Source: an uncultured Actinomycetota bacterium (GTDB lineage Bacteria > Actinomycetota > Acidimicrobiia > Acidimicrobiales > Bog-793). From it: a stretch of DNA of 64,000 nt. Below the pieces are notes generated by a model. It had not been told where the DNA came from. It was given only the letters and a program-made list of their open reading frames with translations, and ran no database searches. A program made the position numbers and the translations under genes. The stretch covers positions 401,958 through 465,957 of the forward strand of contig CAVTJR010000001.1 of the NCBI GenBank assembly GCA_963735115.1, read 5' to 3'. The stretch's first letter is position 1; each line of letters opens with the position of its first letter. Below are positions 4,496 to 13,325 of the stretch, piece after piece.

Positions 4496-4807
4496 CTAAC
4501 TGGGCCGGCGAGGTTGAGCGCCGTTCGCACGCCCGGAGGAAGCGCTCAGCATCTCGCCCATGCGAGCGCGGGCGAGACCGCCGAGAGGGCTCGCAAGGAG
4601 CCCGCTGAACCGATCTCGAGCGAGGTCGCCGAGCGCCCGGACTCTCTCGGCCGTCGCTTCGGCATTGACAGCCTCCGCTCGCGAGCTGGCCACCCGCGGC
4701 CAGTCCGCCCGGGGGTGACCCGATTTCTTGAGCTGCGACGCTTTGGAGGCCGCCCACGCTCCGGCGGCGCATCCGAGAACGAAACCCACCTTGAACCGCA
4801 TCCACAC
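4496..4807 (-). CDS. small hypothetical protein with N-terminal hydrophobic helix
   Basis: 103-aa ORF with MWMRFKVGFVLGCAAGAWAA followed by a charged helical tail. I recognise no family. Confidence 0.4.
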   Translation of the reverse strand: MWMRFKVGFVLGCAAGAWAASKASQLKKSGHPRADWPRVASSRAEAVNAEATAERVRALGDLARDRFSGLLASPLGGLARARMGEMLSASSGRANGAQPRRPS

Positions 4808-4946
4808 CTTCTACCCTTCCGGAGCGCCGCCCGCCACTCGGGACCCTCTGCGACGCGTGCGCAGAACGGCAATCTCGCCGGCTCGAGGCGGGCCGACTAG
4901 GTTGCGACGGGTGATCGCCCCCCCTGCAACTTGCGCTCAGCGCGTG

Positions 4947-6194
4947 ATGGCCCTGACCGCCCGTGGCTTCCTCGCAACCCTCGTGCTCGTGAGCGTCTCC
5001 CTGCTCGGGGCCGCCGACGCATGGGCGGCCGGCAATGCCACGCTCGAGCCCTACATCCTCTCGAACCCGGTACCGGGCTGGACTCCTGCCCCGACCTCGG
5101 TGTCGCAGAGGGTCGACACCGAGGTCTCAGGCCCGCTCGTCGCGAGAACTCACGAGAACGTCACGACGGCGCTCGGGGTTTGGGAAGGGCCCGGCGGCAA
5201 CGGGGTGCTCATCATCATCCTCGTGCGCTTCCCGGGGTCCAGCATCCCAGCTTCATTTTCGAATTCCACCTCGGCCATCAACGGCGTCTGCGGCGGTGCA
5301 GGACAGTCCCCCGGCACGGTGACCCCGATCGCGGGCATTCCCGGAGCCGCCTCTGAGACCTGCCAATCCTCGAGCGGCAATCCGCTCACGGTGGCGGCCT
5401 GGCCGAAGGGAAACGTGGTCGCCTTCGTCGAGGCGGAAGGGCTCGGGGCGACCGAGGTCGACCAGGTAGCCGTGAACGAAGACGACAAGCTGCCAGCCAA
5501 CGGGATCGGTGAAGCCAGCAGCTCGTCCTCGAGCGGGCTCGAGGCTGGAATCGGAGTGGTGGTCGTCGCCGCCGTCGTCATCGGCATCATCGTTGCCCGT
5601 CGACGTTCGAAGGCGCAGGTGGCTCCGGCCGCCGGCGGCCAGTGGGCGCCCCCAGGGGCAGCACCCCCGTGGGGATACGAGGGCGCGCAGGCTGCCTCTC
5701 CGGGCGCTACGCCGTACGGCGGCCCCGGCGGCTATGCGGCTGGGCCGCCCGCTTACCCGGCCGGCGGGTACCCGGCCGGCGGGTACCCGGCCGGTTCGAG
5801 CGTTCCGCCGGCGGGGGCACCGGCCGGCGGCTACGCGGCAGGCTCCGGCGGCTACCCGTCGGGTTCGGGCTTCGACGCAGGTGCTGCGCCAGCGGAAGCA
5901 AGCGGACCCGTGCCCTACCAGCGGCCGCGACCCTCCGAGGGCGGCGATGCCGGGTTCTACGGTGGGACGCAGCCGGCGGCAGCTCCGACCCCTGTCAGGC
6001 AAGCGCCTCCGGTGGTGGGGGGCAACGATGCCACCGTGATCGACGCTCCGCCGCCGGCGGCGGCGCCGGATCACCCTGTCGAAGCGGGCTGGCATGCCGT
6101 CGAGGGCGATCCCAACCGGCAGAGGTATTGGGACGGAACTGCCTGGACCTCCCACCTCCGCTGGGACGGAACCGCCTGGGTGAACGACTCCTGA
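4947..6194 (+). CDS. membrane-anchored protein with Gly/Pro/Tyr-rich linker and C-terminal DUF2510-like repeat
   Basis: Signal-like N-terminus MALTARGFLATLVLVSVSLLGAADAWA at the ATG at 4947. One TM segment (GIGVVVVAAVVIGIIVA). GGYPAGGYPAG repeats. C-terminal GWH..DP..QRYWDGTAWTSH..WDGTAWV motif typical of DUF2510. Confidence 0.65.
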   Translation: MALTARGFLATLVLVSVSLLGAADAWAAGNATLEPYILSNPVPGWTPAPTSVSQRVDTEVSGPLVARTHENVTTALGVWEGPGGNGVLIIILVRFPGSSIPASFSNSTSAINGVCGGAGQSPGTVTPIAGIPGAASETCQSSSGNPLTVAAWPKGNVVAFVEAEGLGATEVDQVAVNEDDKLPANGIGEASSSSSSGLEAGIGVVVVAAVVIGIIVARRRSKAQVAPAAGGQWAPPGAAPPWGYEGAQAASPGATPYGGPGGYAAGPPAYPAGGYPAGGYPAGSSVPPAGAPAGGYAAGSGGYPSGSGFDAGAAPAEASGPVPYQRPRPSEGGDAGFYGGTQPAAAPTPVRQAPPVVGGNDATVIDAPPPAAAPDHPVEAGWHAVEGDPNRQRYWDGTAWTSHLRWDGTAWVNDS

Positions 6195-6251
6195 GGTCCG
6201 TGCGCCAAGAGTAGGATGAGGGCGCCTTCAGGACCGCTAGGGCCGAAGCAT

Positions 6252-6323
6252 TCCGGGGTAGCTCAATGGCAGAGCACGCGGCTGTTAACCGTGTGGTTGA
6301 GAGTTCGAGTCTCTCCCCCGGAG
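6252..6323 (+). tRNA. tRNA-Asn (GTT)
   Basis: Cloverleaf read by eye. Acceptor TCCGGGG/CCCCGGA, D arm GCTC..GAGC, anticodon loop CTGTTAA, T arm GAGAG-TTCGAGT-CTCTC, discriminator G. CCA is not encoded. Confidence 0.9.
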
Positions 6324-6639
6324 CCCATCCGAGTCGAATACCGGCTGCGGTGATGCTGACGGCCGGGTCTCCGTGGGCATGCCAGCTCACCTTTTGCGAG
6401 GGTTAAAAAGGGAGGGCGAAACGCGGAGACCCGGCCGGTCAGCAGGCCTGTGCATGACCATTCGGGGTGGGAAGGTGGTTGTGGTGCGAAAGTGCGTCCC
6501 GTGCCGGCAACTGTGTGCCCAACATGGCGTGCGAACGCACACTCTCGCCACGTTGGGCACACAGTTCGCTCGGGGAACGCGAGGGTGATGAGGCACCGCC
6601 AGATGAGCTCGGCGGGACGCCCGCAGCCGACACGGTTCG

Positions 6640-8070
6640 TCATGACTTGCCCGGATCGGCGACGATGGCATCAGACACGATGGCTCCGGTGGCACGGTCG
6701 CGGATGACGAAGAGGAAGGGATGATCGAAGGAGATCGTCTCGATGTGGCCGTGTTGCAGGGTCGGTCCGCTGCGGACGCCCGAGACAGACGAGGTGTCCG
6801 TGCCCCGCTCGTCGACCGTGAGAGAGTCTGCCTGAGCGATGGCCTGCAGCTGGAGACCGAGGGCTGTCGTGATGCCCGTGTAGTTGGCCCTGAGCCCGAA
6901 CGCCCCGGCGATACCCATGGCTCGCAGGGTTTCATCGAGGTTCGCCTCTGAGGAGATCGAGAACTTCGGCATCGTCAGCGTGACGGAGCCGACGCGGGCG
7001 GAGCTCGCCAGCTTCGTGAGCTCGGCAGAATCCAGCGAGTCCACGACCGAGCTGAGCGAGCCGCCGCGGGCTTCGACAGCGACGGCCTCGAACCCCTCGC
7101 CGGCGTACGGCAGCACGACCGCCTCCAGCCGGTTGGTGGAGACATACGCCAACGAGCTCGATTCGAGCTTCATCATCGTCACGGGCACGCGAGCCCCGCT
7201 GGCGGTGACAAAGGACCCGGGCGTATCGAGGGAGGTCAGGAAGTCGACCTCCGGCGCCCATCGGGCCGCGAAGCGGACGGCGTCGGTCAACACCAGCTCC
7301 GTCATGTAGGGCAAGGGCTCCGCGAAGAGCTGCGGCACGGCACCACGGGTGCTGTTCGCAATCCAGGCGTTGACGGCCGCCGCCGCGTGCGGAGCGGCAA
7401 AGTCGACGCGCTCCAAGCCGGTATCGAAGTACCGCTGGAGGGCGTCCAGATACGCCGGCTTCACCGCCAGGCTCCGTTGCAGGAACAAACACGTCTCGTC
7501 GGTCAGCTGAACGCGGGAGGCAGCCGCGTCCGACTGCAGCCTGGCGACGAGGGCGTCCCAACCGACCGCCTGCGCCGCGGCAGTCGATCGGCCCTCGCCG
7601 AGGGCGCTCGCTATCTCTTGCTGCGTGGCTCCCGCGGCGCCGAGCTCGAGCATCGTGAGCGCCACGCCCAAACTCTCCGGCGAGACGACGATGTTGCTGC
7701 TGCCGGCGCTCGAGAGGAGCCTCTGTGTGAGGGCGAGCGCGAAGCCCTGCTCGGCGTGCTCGACGGCCAACTCAGCCGGAGAACCCGGGGGAACCTGCTC
7801 GAAGGCCGTGCGGCTGACAAGCCGGCTGATCACCGCCTGGCCGCCGACCACCGCCGGCCGCCGTGGGGCCGTCGATGGAAGTGCCAGCGCCGCCACCAGG
7901 GATACAGCCACGATGACGGAGGCTGCCGACCCGACGGCAAGGCGACGTCGGCGAAGACGCCGTTCCGCCCGTCGGCGAATCTCCGCAGGCGGCGTCCACC
8001 CGACTTCAGGCAGGCTCGCGGCGAACCGGACGACGACGTCTCCCCACGGGTCGCTCTGCTGGCTGCTCAT
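6640..8070 (-). CDS. membrane-anchored serpin (short cytoplasmic N-terminus, one TM helix, extracytoplasmic serpin domain)
   Basis: N-terminus ...EIRRRAERRLRRRRLAVGSAASVIVAVSLVAALALP. Serpin core NIVVSPESLGVALTMLELGA... Hinge/RCL DERGTDTSSVSGVRSGPTLQHGH, then the C-terminal FDHPFLFVIRD. GAGG Shine-Dalgarno sits 6 nt before the ATG at 8070. Confidence 0.85.
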   Translation of the reverse strand: MSSQQSDPWGDVVVRFAASLPEVGWTPPAEIRRRAERRLRRRRLAVGSAASVIVAVSLVAALALPSTAPRRPAVVGGQAVISRLVSRTAFEQVPPGSPAELAVEHAEQGFALALTQRLLSSAGSSNIVVSPESLGVALTMLELGAAGATQQEIASALGEGRSTAAAQAVGWDALVARLQSDAAASRVQLTDETCLFLQRSLAVKPAYLDALQRYFDTGLERVDFAAPHAAAAVNAWIANSTRGAVPQLFAEPLPYMTELVLTDAVRFAARWAPEVDFLTSLDTPGSFVTASGARVPVTMMKLESSSLAYVSTNRLEAVVLPYAGEGFEAVAVEARGGSLSSVVDSLDSAELTKLASSARVGSVTLTMPKFSISSEANLDETLRAMGIAGAFGLRANYTGITTALGLQLQAIAQADSLTVDERGTDTSSVSGVRSGPTLQHGHIETISFDHPFLFVIRDRATGAIVSDAIVADPGKS

Positions 8071-8587
8071 TTCGAACCTCCGACTCGCCTGGCAACGTGT
8101 CGTTCATCCGGTCGAGCTCGCTCGCCAGTTGGGTGCGGCCCCGATGCAGCCATGACGTCACGGTCCCAGCGGGAACCGACATCTCGTCGGCCACTTCGCT
8201 CACCGTCAAGCCCACGAGGTGATACAGGATCAGGGCGCGCCTCTGGTCTGGTGTCAGCTGGTCGAGCGCCTGACGAAAGTCCATCATCGACTGCTCGTCT
8301 TCGATCGTGTCGGTGCTGCGTTCCGGTACCTCCGCGCTCGAAACAAGCTGGCGGGCGTGCCGGCGGTGGTTCTTGGCAAGGTTGAAGGCGACGAGCCGTA
8401 CCCACGCCTCCGGGTCCTGCAACGTTCGTAGGCGACGCCAGCGCATCCAGGCCTTCTCGAATGCCTGTTGAACAAGGTCTCGCGCCTCGTTCTCGTCGCC
8501 GGTGAACACGTAGATCTGGCGAATCAAACGGTCGCGACAGGACACGTAGAGGTCGTCGAAGCCCTCGCTGGCCGTCTTCAAGGTCAC
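8006..8587 (-). CDS. ECF-type RNA polymerase sigma factor
   Basis: Region 2 (ARDLVQQAFEKAWMRWRRL..PEAWVRLVAFNLAKNHRR) and region 4 (LTPDQRRALILYHLVGLTVSEVADEMSVPAGTVTSWLHRGR). The 3' end overlaps the serpin gene start by 65 nt. Confidence 0.9.
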   Translation of the reverse strand: MTLKTASEGFDDLYVSCRDRLIRQIYVFTGDENEARDLVQQAFEKAWMRWRRLRTLQDPEAWVRLVAFNLAKNHRRHARQLVSSAEVPERSTDTIEDEQSMMDFRQALDQLTPDQRRALILYHLVGLTVSEVADEMSVPAGTVTSWLHRGRTQLASELDRMNDTLPGESEVRNEQPAERPVGRRRRPVRREPA

Positions 8588-8749
8588 ACCTCACCATTAA
8601 GTAACACACGTGACGGGTGCCTCTGACTGCAGCAAACGCAAAGAAAATCAAGAAACTTTGCCGGGAATGCAGAAGTCTCGACGGCTCGCACGTCGCTCGG
8701 TACGGTCAGCGATGGAGGTACGAAATCCGTCAGTCCTAAAGGGGATGCC

Positions 8750-10072
8750 ATGTCAATGAAATCACAGAGCGCTCACCGCTTCTCGGGCTCCAGGCGGGTG
8801 GTCCTCGCCATCGTTCTCGCCGTGGCCATGACGATCACTTGGGCCGCGGCGGCAAGCGCAAGCAAGGACGTAACCGCCACCGATCACGCCAGGCTAGCCA
8901 CCGCGCTCGTCACGCCGACAGCAAAGCAAGTCTCGGCTCTCATCGTGCCCGCCAGCCAGGGCGACCCGCTGAGCGAACTCCAACTCCATCTGATGTCGAG
9001 GTTCTCCGGCAGCTTCGGCGGAATCTACGTCGACAAGAGCGGTCAGTTCGTGGTTGCCACCGACGGCTCACCGCCTGCTGCGATGCGGCAATCAGTCGAG
9101 GACGGTTTTGCCACCGTGGCGCGCGTCCTGGGTAGCAGGGCAGGTCCGCGACCGTTGCTCCGCGTGGGCTACGCCGACACGGGGGCAACGCTCCAGCACC
9201 TCTATGAGCTGAAGGCTGCAATCCTGGACAACCCCTCCCTCCGCCGCGACGGCATCGATGGGGCGGGTCTCGACGTCGAGCGCGGTCGTGTCGTTGTGAT
9301 GACAGGCCGAGCGAGAGGGGCCGCCGCGGTCAAGGCGGACTACGGCTCTCAAGTCGAGGTGTTGCGCGACTCCGGATCAGCACTCACCGACGGCCGGTAC
9401 AACGACTCACCCGCCTGGAATGGCGGCGACGAGATCGTCACGCCGAGCTACGGGGAGACGACGTGCACTTCCGGCTTCGGCATGCAGGACGCCGAGACAG
9501 GCCAGACGTACTTGCTGACGGCGGGACACTGCGGAAGCGCCACCTGGTACAACACCGGCACGAACGACCCTGTCTACGACAGCGGCACCCTCATCGGAAA
9601 GACGCTGGCCGGTTCGGTGATGACGCGGACGATCGATGCACAGCTGGTCACGACGGACTCGTCGTGCATCTCGTGGGGTGACAAGAGCACGAAGACGTCG
9701 AACGACGTCCGCATCTACGTCTCCGGTTGGGACGACCCACCGCAAGGGGCGGCGATCGAGACGGAGGGAGCCGTGAGCCTCGAGGAGAAAGGCACCGTCG
9801 CCTACTACGACGTCTCGAAGGTGATCGCCGGCGAGAGCCTCGACGACCTCGACCTCGTGACCGCCGTGGGCATCGGCGGTGACTCGGGCGGCCCGCTCAT
9901 CTACCCCACCATCTTCGGCCCGCTCGCCGGCGGAACGGAGGTCGGCTGGTACGAGTCCGGTGACAACTCTTGGGGCGTCTTCCAGCTCATCGACGCCGAG
10001 ATGTACGTGTTCACGGCCCTCACGGGCGACCAGATCGTGCCGGTCACCGCCAGCACCCCCAGCAGCTGCTGA
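8750..10072 (+). CDS. secreted S1-family serine protease (streptogrisin/alpha-lytic type, with pro-region)
   Basis: Signal peptide (VVLAIVLAVAMTITWAAAASA). Long pro-region. Catalytic His in LLTAGHCG and Ser in GIGGDSGGPL. Confidence 0.85.
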   Translation: MSMKSQSAHRFSGSRRVVLAIVLAVAMTITWAAAASASKDVTATDHARLATALVTPTAKQVSALIVPASQGDPLSELQLHLMSRFSGSFGGIYVDKSGQFVVATDGSPPAAMRQSVEDGFATVARVLGSRAGPRPLLRVGYADTGATLQHLYELKAAILDNPSLRRDGIDGAGLDVERGRVVVMTGRARGAAAVKADYGSQVEVLRDSGSALTDGRYNDSPAWNGGDEIVTPSYGETTCTSGFGMQDAETGQTYLLTAGHCGSATWYNTGTNDPVYDSGTLIGKTLAGSVMTRTIDAQLVTTDSSCISWGDKSTKTSNDVRIYVSGWDDPPQGAAIETEGAVSLEEKGTVAYYDVSKVIAGESLDDLDLVTAVGIGGDSGGPLIYPTIFGPLAGGTEVGWYESGDNSWGVFQLIDAEMYVFTALTGDQIVPVTASTPSSC

Positions 10073-11222: not shown

Positions 11223-13325
11223 TCAGAACTTCGAGAGAGCCCAGATGAAGGCGCCGCCGACGGATCCGAGCCCTGTCATGCTGTCGAACCCGGCAGCGGT
11301 CGTCAGCGTGACGGGACGCGTCGCGCAGTTGCCGGTTCCATCGCAGTAGGTCTCCGGCCCCTGGTAGTCAAAGACGCGAAGGCTGACGATGTATCCGGCC
11401 GAGTTGTTGACGCTGTTGGCGTAGTCGACCCGGATGACGGCGGCCGAGTCCGGGCTGGACGGCGGCACGATGTCGTTGAATGCAGTCGGGTATTCCGAGT
11501 ACGCCTTGTACAGGGTCGGGTTGAGGAACCCCAGGGCTATCCCGGCCGCCTGATCGGCGTCGGCAACGACACCGGCGAGCAGCGGCGAGGCGAGGCTGGT
11601 GCCACCCTCCTTGAATTGGTCGTAGTACACCCCGTCCGGGAACGTCTGCGTCAGCCCGATGAGCATGCCGGTCTGGGCGTCGGCGTCCATGGAGATGTCA
11701 GGTAGCACGCGAAGCGGCACAGGTCCGAAGAGTGGCTCGTTTCTCAGCGCGAGGTCGCTCGGGACCACACTGGCCTGGTAGTAGGGCTGGGTGTAGTAGT
11801 AGCTCGTTCCACCGCCACCGCCTACCTGGAAGGCAAGGGCGCCCGCCGGGGCAGTCGAGGAACCGCAGGAGGTCGTCGATGACGAGGTCTCGCACAGCAC
11901 CTGCTTGCCGGTCGACCAGCCGTACTCGGCCGTCCGAGCGTTCGCCCCGTTGATCTCGAGCGTCGTGCCCCCGACGGCAGTCACGTACGGGCTGCTCGCT
12001 GGGTAATCCGGCGCCGCAATTCCGCTGATGGCGAAGTTGTCCCCGTCGTCGCCACTCGAGAACAGAACGCTCACGCCGGTGACGTCGGCCATCATGAACG
12101 TGTCGTCGAAGGCCGCGTGCGTGGCTGCGTCGTCGAAGAGGTCACCGAGGGTGTCGCCCCACGAGTCGGTGACCACCGACGCCCCGCTCTCAACGGCGGT
12201 CGTCAGAGCGGTGAGGAGGCTCGAGTCAAAGCAGTCCTGCGCTCCCACGAACAAGATGTCGGCCCCCGGGGCCATCGTGTGCGACGCCTCGACGTCAAGG
12301 GCCTGCTCCGGGTACCAACCGCTCCCGTCACACTCCGCCTGGTCGTCGACCGTCGACGGAGGCAGGTTGATGAACTGGCTTGACTTCAGCGGAATCGCCG
12401 GGTCGTTCTGCTGGAAGTACCTGTGGGTGTCGGAGAACAACGTCGGTGAGTCGTAGGCGTCGACGATGGCGATGGCGACGCCACTGCCGTTGTCGCCCGC
12501 CTTGATCTCCCCCGACAGCCCGTAGGCACCCTCGAGCTGAGCCGGCTTGTAGCCGCAGGTGTCGTACGGCAGCGGAGCCGTGTACGGCGCGTACAGCGAG
12601 GAGGCGTCTGCGGTGTCAGTCTTCTGACCCCAGTAGCTCGAGCAGGGCTGCGGGTTGCGGAATCCGGCCGGCGGTGCGGGCTCCTGTGCCGGCTTCGCCT
12701 TCTTCTTGGCTGGAGCCTGCGACTCGAGCGCCAGGTCGGTTGTCGCCAGGTACTGGTTGACGCCGAGCACGCCGGAGACGATGCCGGCAAGCGAGGCGGG
12801 AATCGAGAGGGCGCCGTTGGCGAGACGCACGGTGTGGCCGTTCACGTCGAAGTAGCCAAGAGTGACGCCGAACGCCAGCTCGACCTGCAAGGCCGTGCCC
12901 TTGGCGGACACGAAGAGGCGGTCCTTCGGCACGGAACCGACGACGAAACCTTCCTTGCGCAGCCAGCTCTCGGCTCGCGCCACGTCGGCCCGGCTCGGCG
13001 CGAAGCGGGCGTTCCACTGCGCGTCGCTCAGGTAGTGACGGTAGAGGGCGGAGCCCGGGTCCGAGACGGCCTTGACGAACGCCTCCGCCCCGGAGGCGTT
13101 GCGAAGCGTGAGCAGGAGGTCAAATTTCACCTGGGTGTTCAGTGAGACCTTCCCCCTCGGATGAGCGCGCTCGGCGGCGGGCGCGAGCGATCCGCGCAAC
13201 TCGACACGACGCGGTGCCGATCTGGCGGAGGTGGCGGAGGCGGCGGACGGCACCGCCATTGCCACCACAACGGACACGACCAGCCCTACTGATCCCAGCA
13301 AGGCCCACGATCGGGCAGCTTTCAT
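11223..13325 (-). CDS. S53 (sedolisin/kumamolisin-like) secreted peptidase with pro-domain
   Basis: Signal peptide. Pro-kumamolisin-type activation domain (YRHYLSDAQWNARFAPSRADVARAESWLRKEGF). Catalytic Ser motif GGTSLASPLLAG. Confidence 0.85.
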   Translation of the reverse strand: MKAARSWALLGSVGLVVSVVVAMAVPSAASATSARSAPRRVELRGSLAPAAERAHPRGKVSLNTQVKFDLLLTLRNASGAEAFVKAVSDPGSALYRHYLSDAQWNARFAPSRADVARAESWLRKEGFVVGSVPKDRLFVSAKGTALQVELAFGVTLGYFDVNGHTVRLANGALSIPASLAGIVSGVLGVNQYLATTDLALESQAPAKKKAKPAQEPAPPAGFRNPQPCSSYWGQKTDTADASSLYAPYTAPLPYDTCGYKPAQLEGAYGLSGEIKAGDNGSGVAIAIVDAYDSPTLFSDTHRYFQQNDPAIPLKSSQFINLPPSTVDDQAECDGSGWYPEQALDVEASHTMAPGADILFVGAQDCFDSSLLTALTTAVESGASVVTDSWGDTLGDLFDDAATHAAFDDTFMMADVTGVSVLFSSGDDGDNFAISGIAAPDYPASSPYVTAVGGTTLEINGANARTAEYGWSTGKQVLCETSSSTTSCGSSTAPAGALAFQVGGGGGTSYYYTQPYYQASVVPSDLALRNEPLFGPVPLRVLPDISMDADAQTGMLIGLTQTFPDGVYYDQFKEGGTSLASPLLAGVVADADQAAGIALGFLNPTLYKAYSEYPTAFNDIVPPSSPDSAAVIRVDYANSVNNSAGYIVSLRVFDYQGPETYCDGTGNCATRPVTLTTAAGFDSMTGLGSVGGAFIWALSKF

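Follow-up and report, generated by a model that had tools for sequence, protein, structure and literature searches.

A membrane-anchored serpin as probable partner of an extracytoplasmic function sigma factor in uncultured Actinomycetota

Systems made up of ECF (extracytoplasmic function) sigma factors and their anti-sigma factors rank among the main ways in which bacteria signal across membranes and, to our knowledge, the input signal is unknown for most ECF groups. In some of them the anti-sigma factor directly meets an enzyme or a drug target, as RsiV engages lysozyme and RsiP engages penicillin-binding proteins. We describe here a locus in a 64,000-nucleotide stretch of DNA from an uncultured bacterium of the Acidimicrobiales (contig CAVTJR010000001.1, positions 401,958 to 465,957, hereafter the window), in which an ECF sigma gene is directly followed by a gene for a predicted single-pass membrane protein with a serpin domain.

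The two genes share 65 nt (8006-8070), and a gap of 162 bp separates the sigma gene from a divergent gene for a pre-pro serine protease (Table 1). All three open reading frames (ORFs), their coordinates, their overlap and their divergent layout are present as given in a preliminary description of the window, and each of the strings quoted there (RRRAERRLRRRR, NIVVSPESL..., FDHPFLFVIRD, GTDTSSVSG, TAGHCG and GDSGGP) was found. The ATG start of the serpin gene is credible, since a GGAGG lies 6 nt 5' of it (8077-8081) and since the N-terminal peptide is conserved as protein even in those relatives whose start was truncated by gene callers.

The arrangement resembles ECF pairs under the control of regulated proteolysis, above all σV-RsiV and σP-RsiP of Bacillus subtilis and also σE-RseA of Escherichia coli and σW-RsiW, in its co-transcribed genes for a sigma factor and a putative single-pass anti-sigma factor, in the predicted cytoplasmic N-terminus and extracytoplasmic sensor, and in a candidate autoregulated promoter of the AAC/CGT type. 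RsiV is a direct lysozyme receptor, and here, too, the sensor would be in direct contact with a hostile enzyme. Unlike in RsiV, RsiP, RseA and RsiW, this sensor would be a serpin, that is, a suicide substrate whose signalling reaction would be covalent, irreversible and enzyme-neutralising; the cytoplasmic segment also differs from theirs, being about 43 amino acids long, with neither a zinc-binding anti-sigma (ZAS) motif nor a class I signature. A second set of relatives is the actinobacterial SigE family (TIGR02983; the clade around ECF38/39/51/222 of Casas-Pastor et al. 2021, PMC7826278), with which the locus shares the best-matching sigma model, one-transmembrane partners of variable ectodomain, an N-terminal module that also occurs on non-serpin partners, and a GCAACC/CGTG-type promoter. 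The same source describes for this clade one anti-sigma type common to several groups.

The serpin fold and, in most coupled members, an inhibitory-type hinge are shared with the serpins of Bifidobacterium longum and B. breve, miropin, thermopin, tengpin and the siropins. Miropin is a surface lipoprotein and thus offers a likeness in surface tethering. The same holds for the B. longum serpin, which is N-terminally membrane-anchored (PMC8012564); with it and with the lipoprotein serpins of the clade studied here, the view of bacterial serpins as soluble inhibitors, taken in the preliminary description, had to be corrected. There is also a precedent for protease-inducible expression, in that the B. 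breve serpin is induced by proteases via a two-component system, as related in PMC8012564 on the authority of Alvarez-Martin 2012. The serpin is in such cases output only, sensing in B. breve being left to the two-component system, whereas here the serpin would itself sense. Anchoring and protease-responsive expression of serpins are therefore already known, and what appears to be new is the fusion of a serpin to a sigma-partner module, with the inhibitor as presumptive receptor. In keeping with the unfamiliarity noted in the preliminary description, in the searchable full texts serpins were nowhere tied to ECF or anti-sigma factors (unrelated papers only), and the main text of the ECF re-classification (PMC7826278) mentions no serpin partner.

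Table 1. Features of the locus, in window positions unless another locus is named
Feature	Position	Strand	Remarks
Serpin-protein gene	6640-8070	-	476 aa, ATG start
Cytoplasmic N-terminal module, residues 1-43 (predicted)	7942..8070	-	Conserved in coupled serpins; presumed sigma-binding segment
Single transmembrane helix, residues 44-62 (predicted)	7885..7941	-	Hydropathy and charge bias
Extracytoplasmic juxtamembrane linker, residues 63-99 (predicted)	7774..7884	-	Semi-conserved 'LV(A/S)xV' strand
Serpin domain, residues ~100-476, including stop codon	6640..7773	-	Pfam PF00079, AlphaFold2, Foldseek
Reactive-centre loop	6742..6810	-	Counted from P17, checked on PAI-2 alignment
ECF sigma gene	8006-8587	-	193 aa; start probably TTG at 8581
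ECF-type autoregulatory promoter candidate of sigma gene	8605..8631	-	TGCAGTC-N14-CGTGTG
Housekeeping-type (sigma-A-like) promoter candidate of protease gene	8678..8706	+	TCGACG-N17-TACGGT
S1E protease gene	8750-10072	+	440 aa, pre-pro type
Pre-pro S1E protease, parts	8750..10072	+	Signal peptide, pro-region ~160-180 aa, protease domain from ~residue 223 (nt ~9416-10072)
Non-serpin module protein P0189, Catellatospora vulcania	L113 2014-3298		Directly after ECF sigma gene
Non-serpin module protein	L114 2010-3796		Directly after SigE-family-like ECF sigma gene

Pairing of the sigma factor with the serpin protein

The profile searches that had been suggested for the three proteins were run, and the Serpin and Sigma70_r2/r4_2 models matched, while the protease was recognised via a 25-sequence profile. 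In the sigma factor, Pfam Sigma70_r2 covers residues 13-79 and r4_2 residues 103-154, with neither region 3 nor region 1, and the score against TIGR02937 is 90.5 (cutoff, 42.9), so that the protein is an ECF (group 4) sigma-70 factor. Its best NCBIfam model is TIGR02983 (SigE family). Unlike certified members of that family, it stays below the model's cutoff (125.3 bits against 141.55) and stands beside the actinobacterial SigE family as a divergent sister group. It shares 45-80% identity with its orthologues, and the NCBI label on its relatives is 'SigE family'. The sigma factors of the window and of the loci L009 and L092 are lengthened at the C-terminus by an Arg-rich stretch of about 20 amino acids (193 amino acids in the window versus about 170), which is encoded where the gene overlaps the serpin start (8006-8070, minus strand); those of other relatives end earlier.

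To survey the gene neighbourhoods, as the preliminary description had proposed, GTDB species genomes were scanned with a serpin profile and JGI metagenomes with a sigma profile, followed by local hidden Markov model searches of all six-frame ORFs. Serpin genes were found after ECF sigma genes in about 31 distinct loci, with serpins at 26-78% identity, and because the arrangement recurs so widely, it is a conserved family and more than chance. The hosts belong to the Acidimicrobiales, Jatrophihabitantaceae/Jatrophihabitans and Streptosporangiaceae, or are unclassified Actinomycetota metagenome-assembled genomes (MAGs), mostly from peat and soil. All members found come from MAGs, which may explain why the family went unnoticed.

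Starting from the sigma factor, the same pairing was obtained. Among 18 metagenome sigma relatives (at least 41% identity), a serpin gene comes next in all 15 whose contig continues. Three relatives at 46-50% identity were picked arbitrarily from a list of 120 clusters (43-50%), and in each of the three an overlapping serpin gene of about 480 amino acids comes next; called overlaps between the two genes span 4-32 nt in relatives. On the contigs of close relatives, the divergent protease gene, the sigma gene and the overlapping serpin gene stand together and the flanking genes vary, and when neighbours were clustered, only sigma and serpin proved common to all 26 representative loci. Moreover, sigma and serpin divergence are correlated (r=0.85 over 325 pairs), which fits inheritance as a unit, although vertical descent of neighbours alone would also give this value.

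The coupled serpins share an unusual N-terminus. Their 40-50 presumably cytoplasmic residues comprise a short amphipathic helix, the motif W-x2-P-x-(E/D/Q)-(I/L/V)-(R/K) and then, up to the transmembrane helix, a run rich in Arg; in the window protein these are a short helix, W25-x2-P28-x-E-I-R and again an Arg-rich run. This pattern is conserved among coupled serpins and kept by close homologues of the serpin protein (34-67% identity), whereas the linker is not conserved. The AlphaFold2 model of the window protein places a helix at residues 8-19 and a long helix at 28-63 that runs into the transmembrane segment, whose mean Kyte-Doolittle hydropathy is 2.36. Lys and Arg number 9 in the 20 residues before this segment and 2 in the 20 after it. 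Similarly, each of the 31 distinct coupled proteins has one hydrophobic segment, with 5-10 Lys/Arg in the 20 residues before and 0-4 in the 20 after. Owing to this positive-inside charge bias, the N-terminus is predicted to be cytoplasmic and the serpin domain to lie outside in 31/31, as the preliminary description had supposed for the window protein.

The N-terminal module is not confined to serpins. A profile of residues 1-105 was run against 1.84 billion representatives, and it matched serpins as well as proteins with unrelated ectodomains, among them FtsX_ECD, WD40 repeats, a PknH_C-like one (weak, sub-threshold) and unknown domains. Taken singly, the matches are weak (E values of 1e-6 to 1e-3), as expected of a motif of 45 amino acids. 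For the two non-serpin carriers on long contigs, P0189 and P0198, the gene in both cases comes directly after an ECF sigma gene, with which it overlaps; a third, P0200, lies on a contig too short for context and is left out of this count. The ectodomains of the L113 and L114 module proteins have no Pfam assignment. The sigma factor of L113 (Catellatospora) is 38% identical to that of the window and, at 148 bits, passes the TIGR02983 cutoff, and its gene is preceded by a GCAACC-N16-GCGTGAC promoter. Such sharing is the pattern that would be expected of an anti-sigma domain with an exchangeable sensor. By phylogeny, the module has its place beside actinobacterial SigE-family ECFs with one-transmembrane partners. 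About 1.2 kb upstream of the sigma gene at L113, there is a gene for a 1077-amino-acid S8 peptidase.

The ORF after the sigma gene had been proposed as its anti-sigma factor, and the conserved overlapping pair, the module common to other ECF partners and the predicted topology with the N-terminus in and the serpin out all speak for this. We therefore hold, with good confidence, that the two proteins are a sigma/anti-sigma pair with a serpin as sensor domain. Alternatively, the serpin might be a mere membrane-tethered inhibitor that protects the envelope, maybe against the cell's own S1E protease, the sigma factor being regulated otherwise and the N-terminus being just an anchor. In its favour, anchored bacterial serpins do exist, both in B. 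longum (PMC8012564) and, within the clade studied here, in the form of lipobox serpins; no curated anti-sigma family matches the N-terminus, and one transmembrane serpin that has this N-terminus lacks a sigma gene beside it. Yet a mere anchor would not need a conserved W-x2-P-x-E-I-R and Arg-rich cytoplasmic motif, and the lipoprotein relatives are anchored without it. Given also that the same module is carried by unrelated ectodomains that likewise follow ECF sigma genes, and that in this sigma clade the pairing is essentially obligatory, with overlapping reading frames, we regard this explanation as quite improbable.

The relationships of the serpins bear on the origin of the arrangement. 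In Chloroflexota, Bacteroidota, Dormibacterota and other phyla, serpins begin with a signal or lipobox sequence, and no sigma gene stands next to theirs. In the serpin clade of the actinobacteria, transmembrane forms coupled to a sigma factor alternate with lipoprotein forms, and since the members without a sigma link are lipoproteins, surface tethering is probably ancestral and the cytoplasmic module the addition. At three loci (L017 5532-7458, L023 5285-7383 and L024 5232-7173), the sigma factor paired with the serpin is of a second, only distantly related ECF type, with sigma profile scores of 56-72 versus at least 160 for the main clade; the cytoplasmic N-terminus is also different, and a serpin may here have been recruited independently to partner an ECF sigma factor.

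Some variants were seen beside these. The orphan transmembrane serpin mentioned above (L033 1993-3426) has the same W-x2-P-x-x-V-R/Arg-rich N-terminus and no sigma gene upstream. At L087 (5779-7304 and 3340-5297) the coupled serpin is split into two ORFs, by a frameshift, as a pseudogene or by an assembly error, and directly upstream of it lies another ECF sigma gene, whose one-transmembrane partner has a large unannotated ectodomain rich in 'TDGG..W' repeats. Serpin genes paired in tandem, without a sigma link, occur in Chloroflexota/Anaerolineae MAGs (L052, L053, L059 and L078).

Reactive loop, promoters and the divergent protease

The serpin assignment is supported by sequence and by structure. 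Pfam Serpin (PF00079) matched residues 106-468 (E=3.8e-67), sequence matches in the PDB include PAI-2 (7.6e-34), and the AlphaFold2 model (mean predicted local distance difference test score, pLDDT, 83.5) gave template modelling scores (TM-scores) of up to 0.91 against serpin structures in Foldseek. The reactive loop from P17 to P1 reads E421-R-G-T-D-T-S-S-V-S-G-V-R-S-G-P-T437, followed by L438 (P1') and a conserved H440-G441 (P3'-P4'). It has Gly at P15 (G423), Thr at P14 (T424) and a length of 17 residues, as inhibitory serpins require, then the hinge DTSSVSG, in which P12 Thr and P10 Ser are small yet polar, and P436 at P2. In the alignment with PAI-2, the P1 Arg of the latter falls one residue off the window P1.

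Across the family, P14 Thr is universal, and most of the members without a linked protease have the textbook hinge GT(E/D/T)AAA(A/V)TG. The majority have Pro at P2 and Thr, Ser or Leu at P1, never Arg or Lys; in most relatives the loop reads V-I-P-(T/S/L), as against ...G-P-T437|L438... in the window. Judged by the known preferences of S1E proteases and subtilisins, these P1 residues point to elastase-, chymotrypsin-, S1E- or subtilisin-type targets and not to trypsin-like ones. The AlphaFold2 model shows the loop-inserted state, with residues 423-429 in a strand; pLDDT falls below 50 for 431-443. The best match is cleaved PAI-1 (3eox; root-mean-square deviation, 2.3 A; TM-score, 0.91), and the other top PDB matches are a cleaved tick serpin, latent antithrombin, conserpin and tengpin (2pef), not native serpins. 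From such a model it follows only that a loop of this sequence could insert. With its P14 Thr and small residues, the hinge is nevertheless consistent with the loop insertion that had been suggested for it.

Upstream of the sigma gene, we found an element whose family consensus is TGCAACC-N16-[CG]GTGT[CG]. In most of the 35 distinct upstream regions compared, it stands about 55 nt ahead of the sigma start, conserved inside intergenic DNA that otherwise does not align. The sub-lineage of the window has the form TGCAGTC/TGCAATC ... GTGTGT, and the element at 8605-8631 is the sole strict match in the 64-kb window, where 0.37 would be expected. With its AAC-type -35 and CGT-type -10, it is a candidate ECF autoregulatory promoter. 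A simple consensus scan of this high-GC DNA for promoters and terminators was uninformative.

The protease gene has a different element, TCGACG-N17-TAC(G/C)GT, which fits the actinobacterial housekeeping consensus (-35 TTGACA-like, -10 TANNNT). It is found in 13 of 16 distinct protease-linked loci, the window included and one N16 variant among them, and is missing in the more distant L007, L013 and L018. The preliminary description had guessed at an ECF-type promoter here, GAAAC-N18-GTCT at 8652-8678. The string is present, but its GAAAC is not conserved in position and it overlaps the housekeeping-type element, so we rejected it; the ECF motif stands upstream of the sigma gene instead. Since the conserved ECF-type element precedes the sigma gene and none is found at the protease gene, the sigma factor appears to drive its own operon (more sigma, more serpin), and nothing in the sequence indicates that the protease gene is under its control.

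The protease had been described as an S1 enzyme of streptogrisin/alpha-lytic type, and this reading held, although the evidence had to be assembled. As a single sequence, the protein gave no match in a phmmer search of the PDB, Pfam Trypsin matched only at E=0.005, and a 4-sequence profile was weak. A 25-sequence profile matched the Streptomyces fradiae protease 2sfa (5e-14), SGPB (streptogrisin B; 6e-12) and alpha-lytic protease (1e-8), and also TFPA and NAPase. In the orthologues H260 (TAGHCG) and S379 (GDSGGP) of the triad are invariant and D296 nearly so. The AlphaFold2 model (pLDDT 70.5) has a pro-region at 58-206 and, after a junction of low confidence, a protease domain that begins near residue 226, and Foldseek matched it to alpha-lytic protease 2lpr (E=4e-12; TM-score, 0.79). 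On the strength of the conserved triad, the 25-sequence profile and the predicted fold, the neighbour is a divergent pre-pro S1E protease. It resembles alpha-lytic protease, streptogrisin B, SFase-2, TFPA and NAPase in triad, fold (TM-score, 0.74-0.79) and pre-pro architecture, and differs from the solved S1E proteases in its identity of only about 20-24%, the lack of a Pfam assignment and extra conserved Cys residues, including a C-terminal one.

The family of this protease is small (35 clusters), and almost all of it is annotated as hypothetical. Its linkage to the pair is confined to one sub-lineage of the Acidimicrobiales, that of the window, and in loci without it, a motif search and all-against-all clustering of neighbours revealed no proteins with S1/S8 active sites nearby. 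The idea that the protease is part of the system, raised in the preliminary description, must thus be narrowed to one sub-lineage, the gene being outside the conserved module.

A model of protease-triggered release and its alternatives

In the model that we infer, which comprises sigma binding, a protease trigger, a proteolytic relay and a regulon, the 43-residue cytoplasmic N-terminus of the single-pass serpin protein would at rest keep the ECF sigma factor inactive at the membrane, and a metastable serpin of inhibitor type would be displayed on the cell surface. The signal would be a chymotrypsin-, elastase- or subtilisin-like serine protease that attacks the reactive loop. The serpin would be cleaved and its loop would insert irreversibly, the protease being trapped or the serpin being spent as a substrate. 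The spent ectodomain would then be removed and the stub processed; as in other ECF systems, regulated intramembrane proteolysis would presumably do this. The freed sigma factor would transcribe the sigma-serpin operon from the TGCAACC-N16-CGTGTC-type promoter. Because serpins are spent one-for-one, consumption of this single-use inhibitor would be coupled to its resynthesis.

We lean slightly towards this full model. More tentatively, and with rather less than even confidence, we suggest that each reacting protease would spend one anti-sigma factor and free one sigma factor, so that attacks would be counted stoichiometrically and exactly the consumed inhibitor replaced. A large family of Actinomycetota would then use a suicide inhibitor as a receptor. 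As most of the family has no linked protease gene, protease activity that is ambient or foreign is the probable signal in general. In the sub-lineage of the window, the S1E protease, with its own housekeeping-type promoter, would be a plausible cognate target, and the module could there report self-protection, or the successful export and activation of that protease.

Several observations weigh against this model. The N-terminal 105 amino acids gave no Pfam or NCBIfam anti-sigma match at E≤10; the matches to OppC_N, DUF3040 and CU044_5270 obtained in that search were noise only. Moreover, residues 1-43 contain no Cys/His motif and no ZAS, and they are far shorter than a class I anti-sigma domain. 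With no anti-sigma family match and no zinc motif, the module is, on sequence grounds, neither a class I nor a ZAS anti-sigma domain. Cleavage of the loop would leave the serpin body on the membrane, and extra trimming must be assumed before a site-2 protease could act. The protease gene is absent from most sigma-serpin loci, and its promoter has no ECF motif. A search for the ECF motif that covered the window together with about 430 kb from related loci gave the sigma promoters and background only, and no regulon member was found beyond the operon itself. The motif occurs 20 times off called sigma starts, versus 20 times in shuffled sequence, and several of these matches are sigma promoters whose ORF starts were over-extended.

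The hinge has to be counted among these points. It is more polar in the protease-linked sub-lineage (P13 Asp/Asn, P12 Thr/Ala/Val, P10 Ser/Ala/Gln), and proteins of the L004 type have Gln and Leu in it. In variants of antithrombin and C1-inhibitor, a polar residue at P12 or P10 favours the substrate pathway over inhibition, and by analogy the polar hinge in the sub-lineage of the window could shift behaviour towards that pathway. This leads to a second explanation, in which the protein is an anti-sigma factor and its serpin no protease trap, acting instead as a bait or substrate, as a sensor of heat, pH or envelope damage by transition or polymerisation, or as a binder of a non-protease ligand. 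The non-canonical hinge (P12 Thr and P10 Ser in the window sub-lineage, Gln/Leu in the L004 type) would agree with it, as would the loop-inserted state favoured by AlphaFold2. In tengpin, an N-terminal extension can control the transition from the native to the latent state, a precedent for such a sensor. However, P14 Thr is invariant, most coupled members keep the textbook inhibitory hinge together with the P2 Pro/P1 Thr-Ser-Leu bait, and in one lineage an S1E protease gene was recruited beside the module. We therefore rate this second explanation as rather unlikely.

The linker invites a third explanation, an inverted threshold device, in which the serpin would shield its own linker (site 1) from the protease and the sigma factor would be freed once proteases outnumber surface serpins. 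In the AlphaFold2 model the linker is disordered at residues 63-78, a Pro/Arg-containing part beside the membrane, and forms a strand at 81-83 (pLDDT 74-84) within the LV(A/S)xV motif, which is met again both in coupled serpins and in the clade's lipoprotein serpins. Besides this disordered part, the established behaviour of serpins as stoichiometric single-use inhibitors and the protease linked in this lineage would suit such a device, whereas alignments of coupled serpins reveal no conserved cleavage motif in the disordered part. Although sequence data do not separate it from the model of loop-triggered release, we give the threshold device very little credence.

If each spent serpin does free one sigma factor, as suggested more tentatively above, ECF systems would perceive signals on a principle new to them, and serpins would have a new role in biology. 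Under the full model, the conformational switch of a serpin would serve as a bacterial transmembrane signal, an analogue of the animal receptors that recognise spent serpin-protease complexes. The chemistry of a serpin sensor is known and highly specific, being irreversible and directed at serine proteases, which makes the input directly testable. Such a system would explain how Actinomycetota of soil and peat match a single-use inhibitor to the surrounding protease load. It would also offer a compact protease-responsive switch made of two genes and one promoter, with a specificity that could be reprogrammed via the reactive loop.

Surroundings of the locus

A second gene for a secreted protease lies near the S1E protease gene, at a distance of 1.1 kb. 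It encodes a 700-amino-acid peptidase of the sedolisin/kumamolisin type (11223-13325, minus strand; Pro-kuma_activ 1e-29, Peptidase_S8 4e-12) and is not conserved in L001, L004 or L007. On the other side, just past the 3' end of the serpin gene, there is a tRNA-Asn (GTT) gene (6251-6327, plus strand), and in the related locus L001 a phage-type integrase gene lies about 2 kb beyond the serpin gene. Further out in the window, positions 4728-6194 (plus strand) encode a 488-amino-acid membrane protein rich in Pro, Gly and Ala, with DUF2510 at its C-terminal end.

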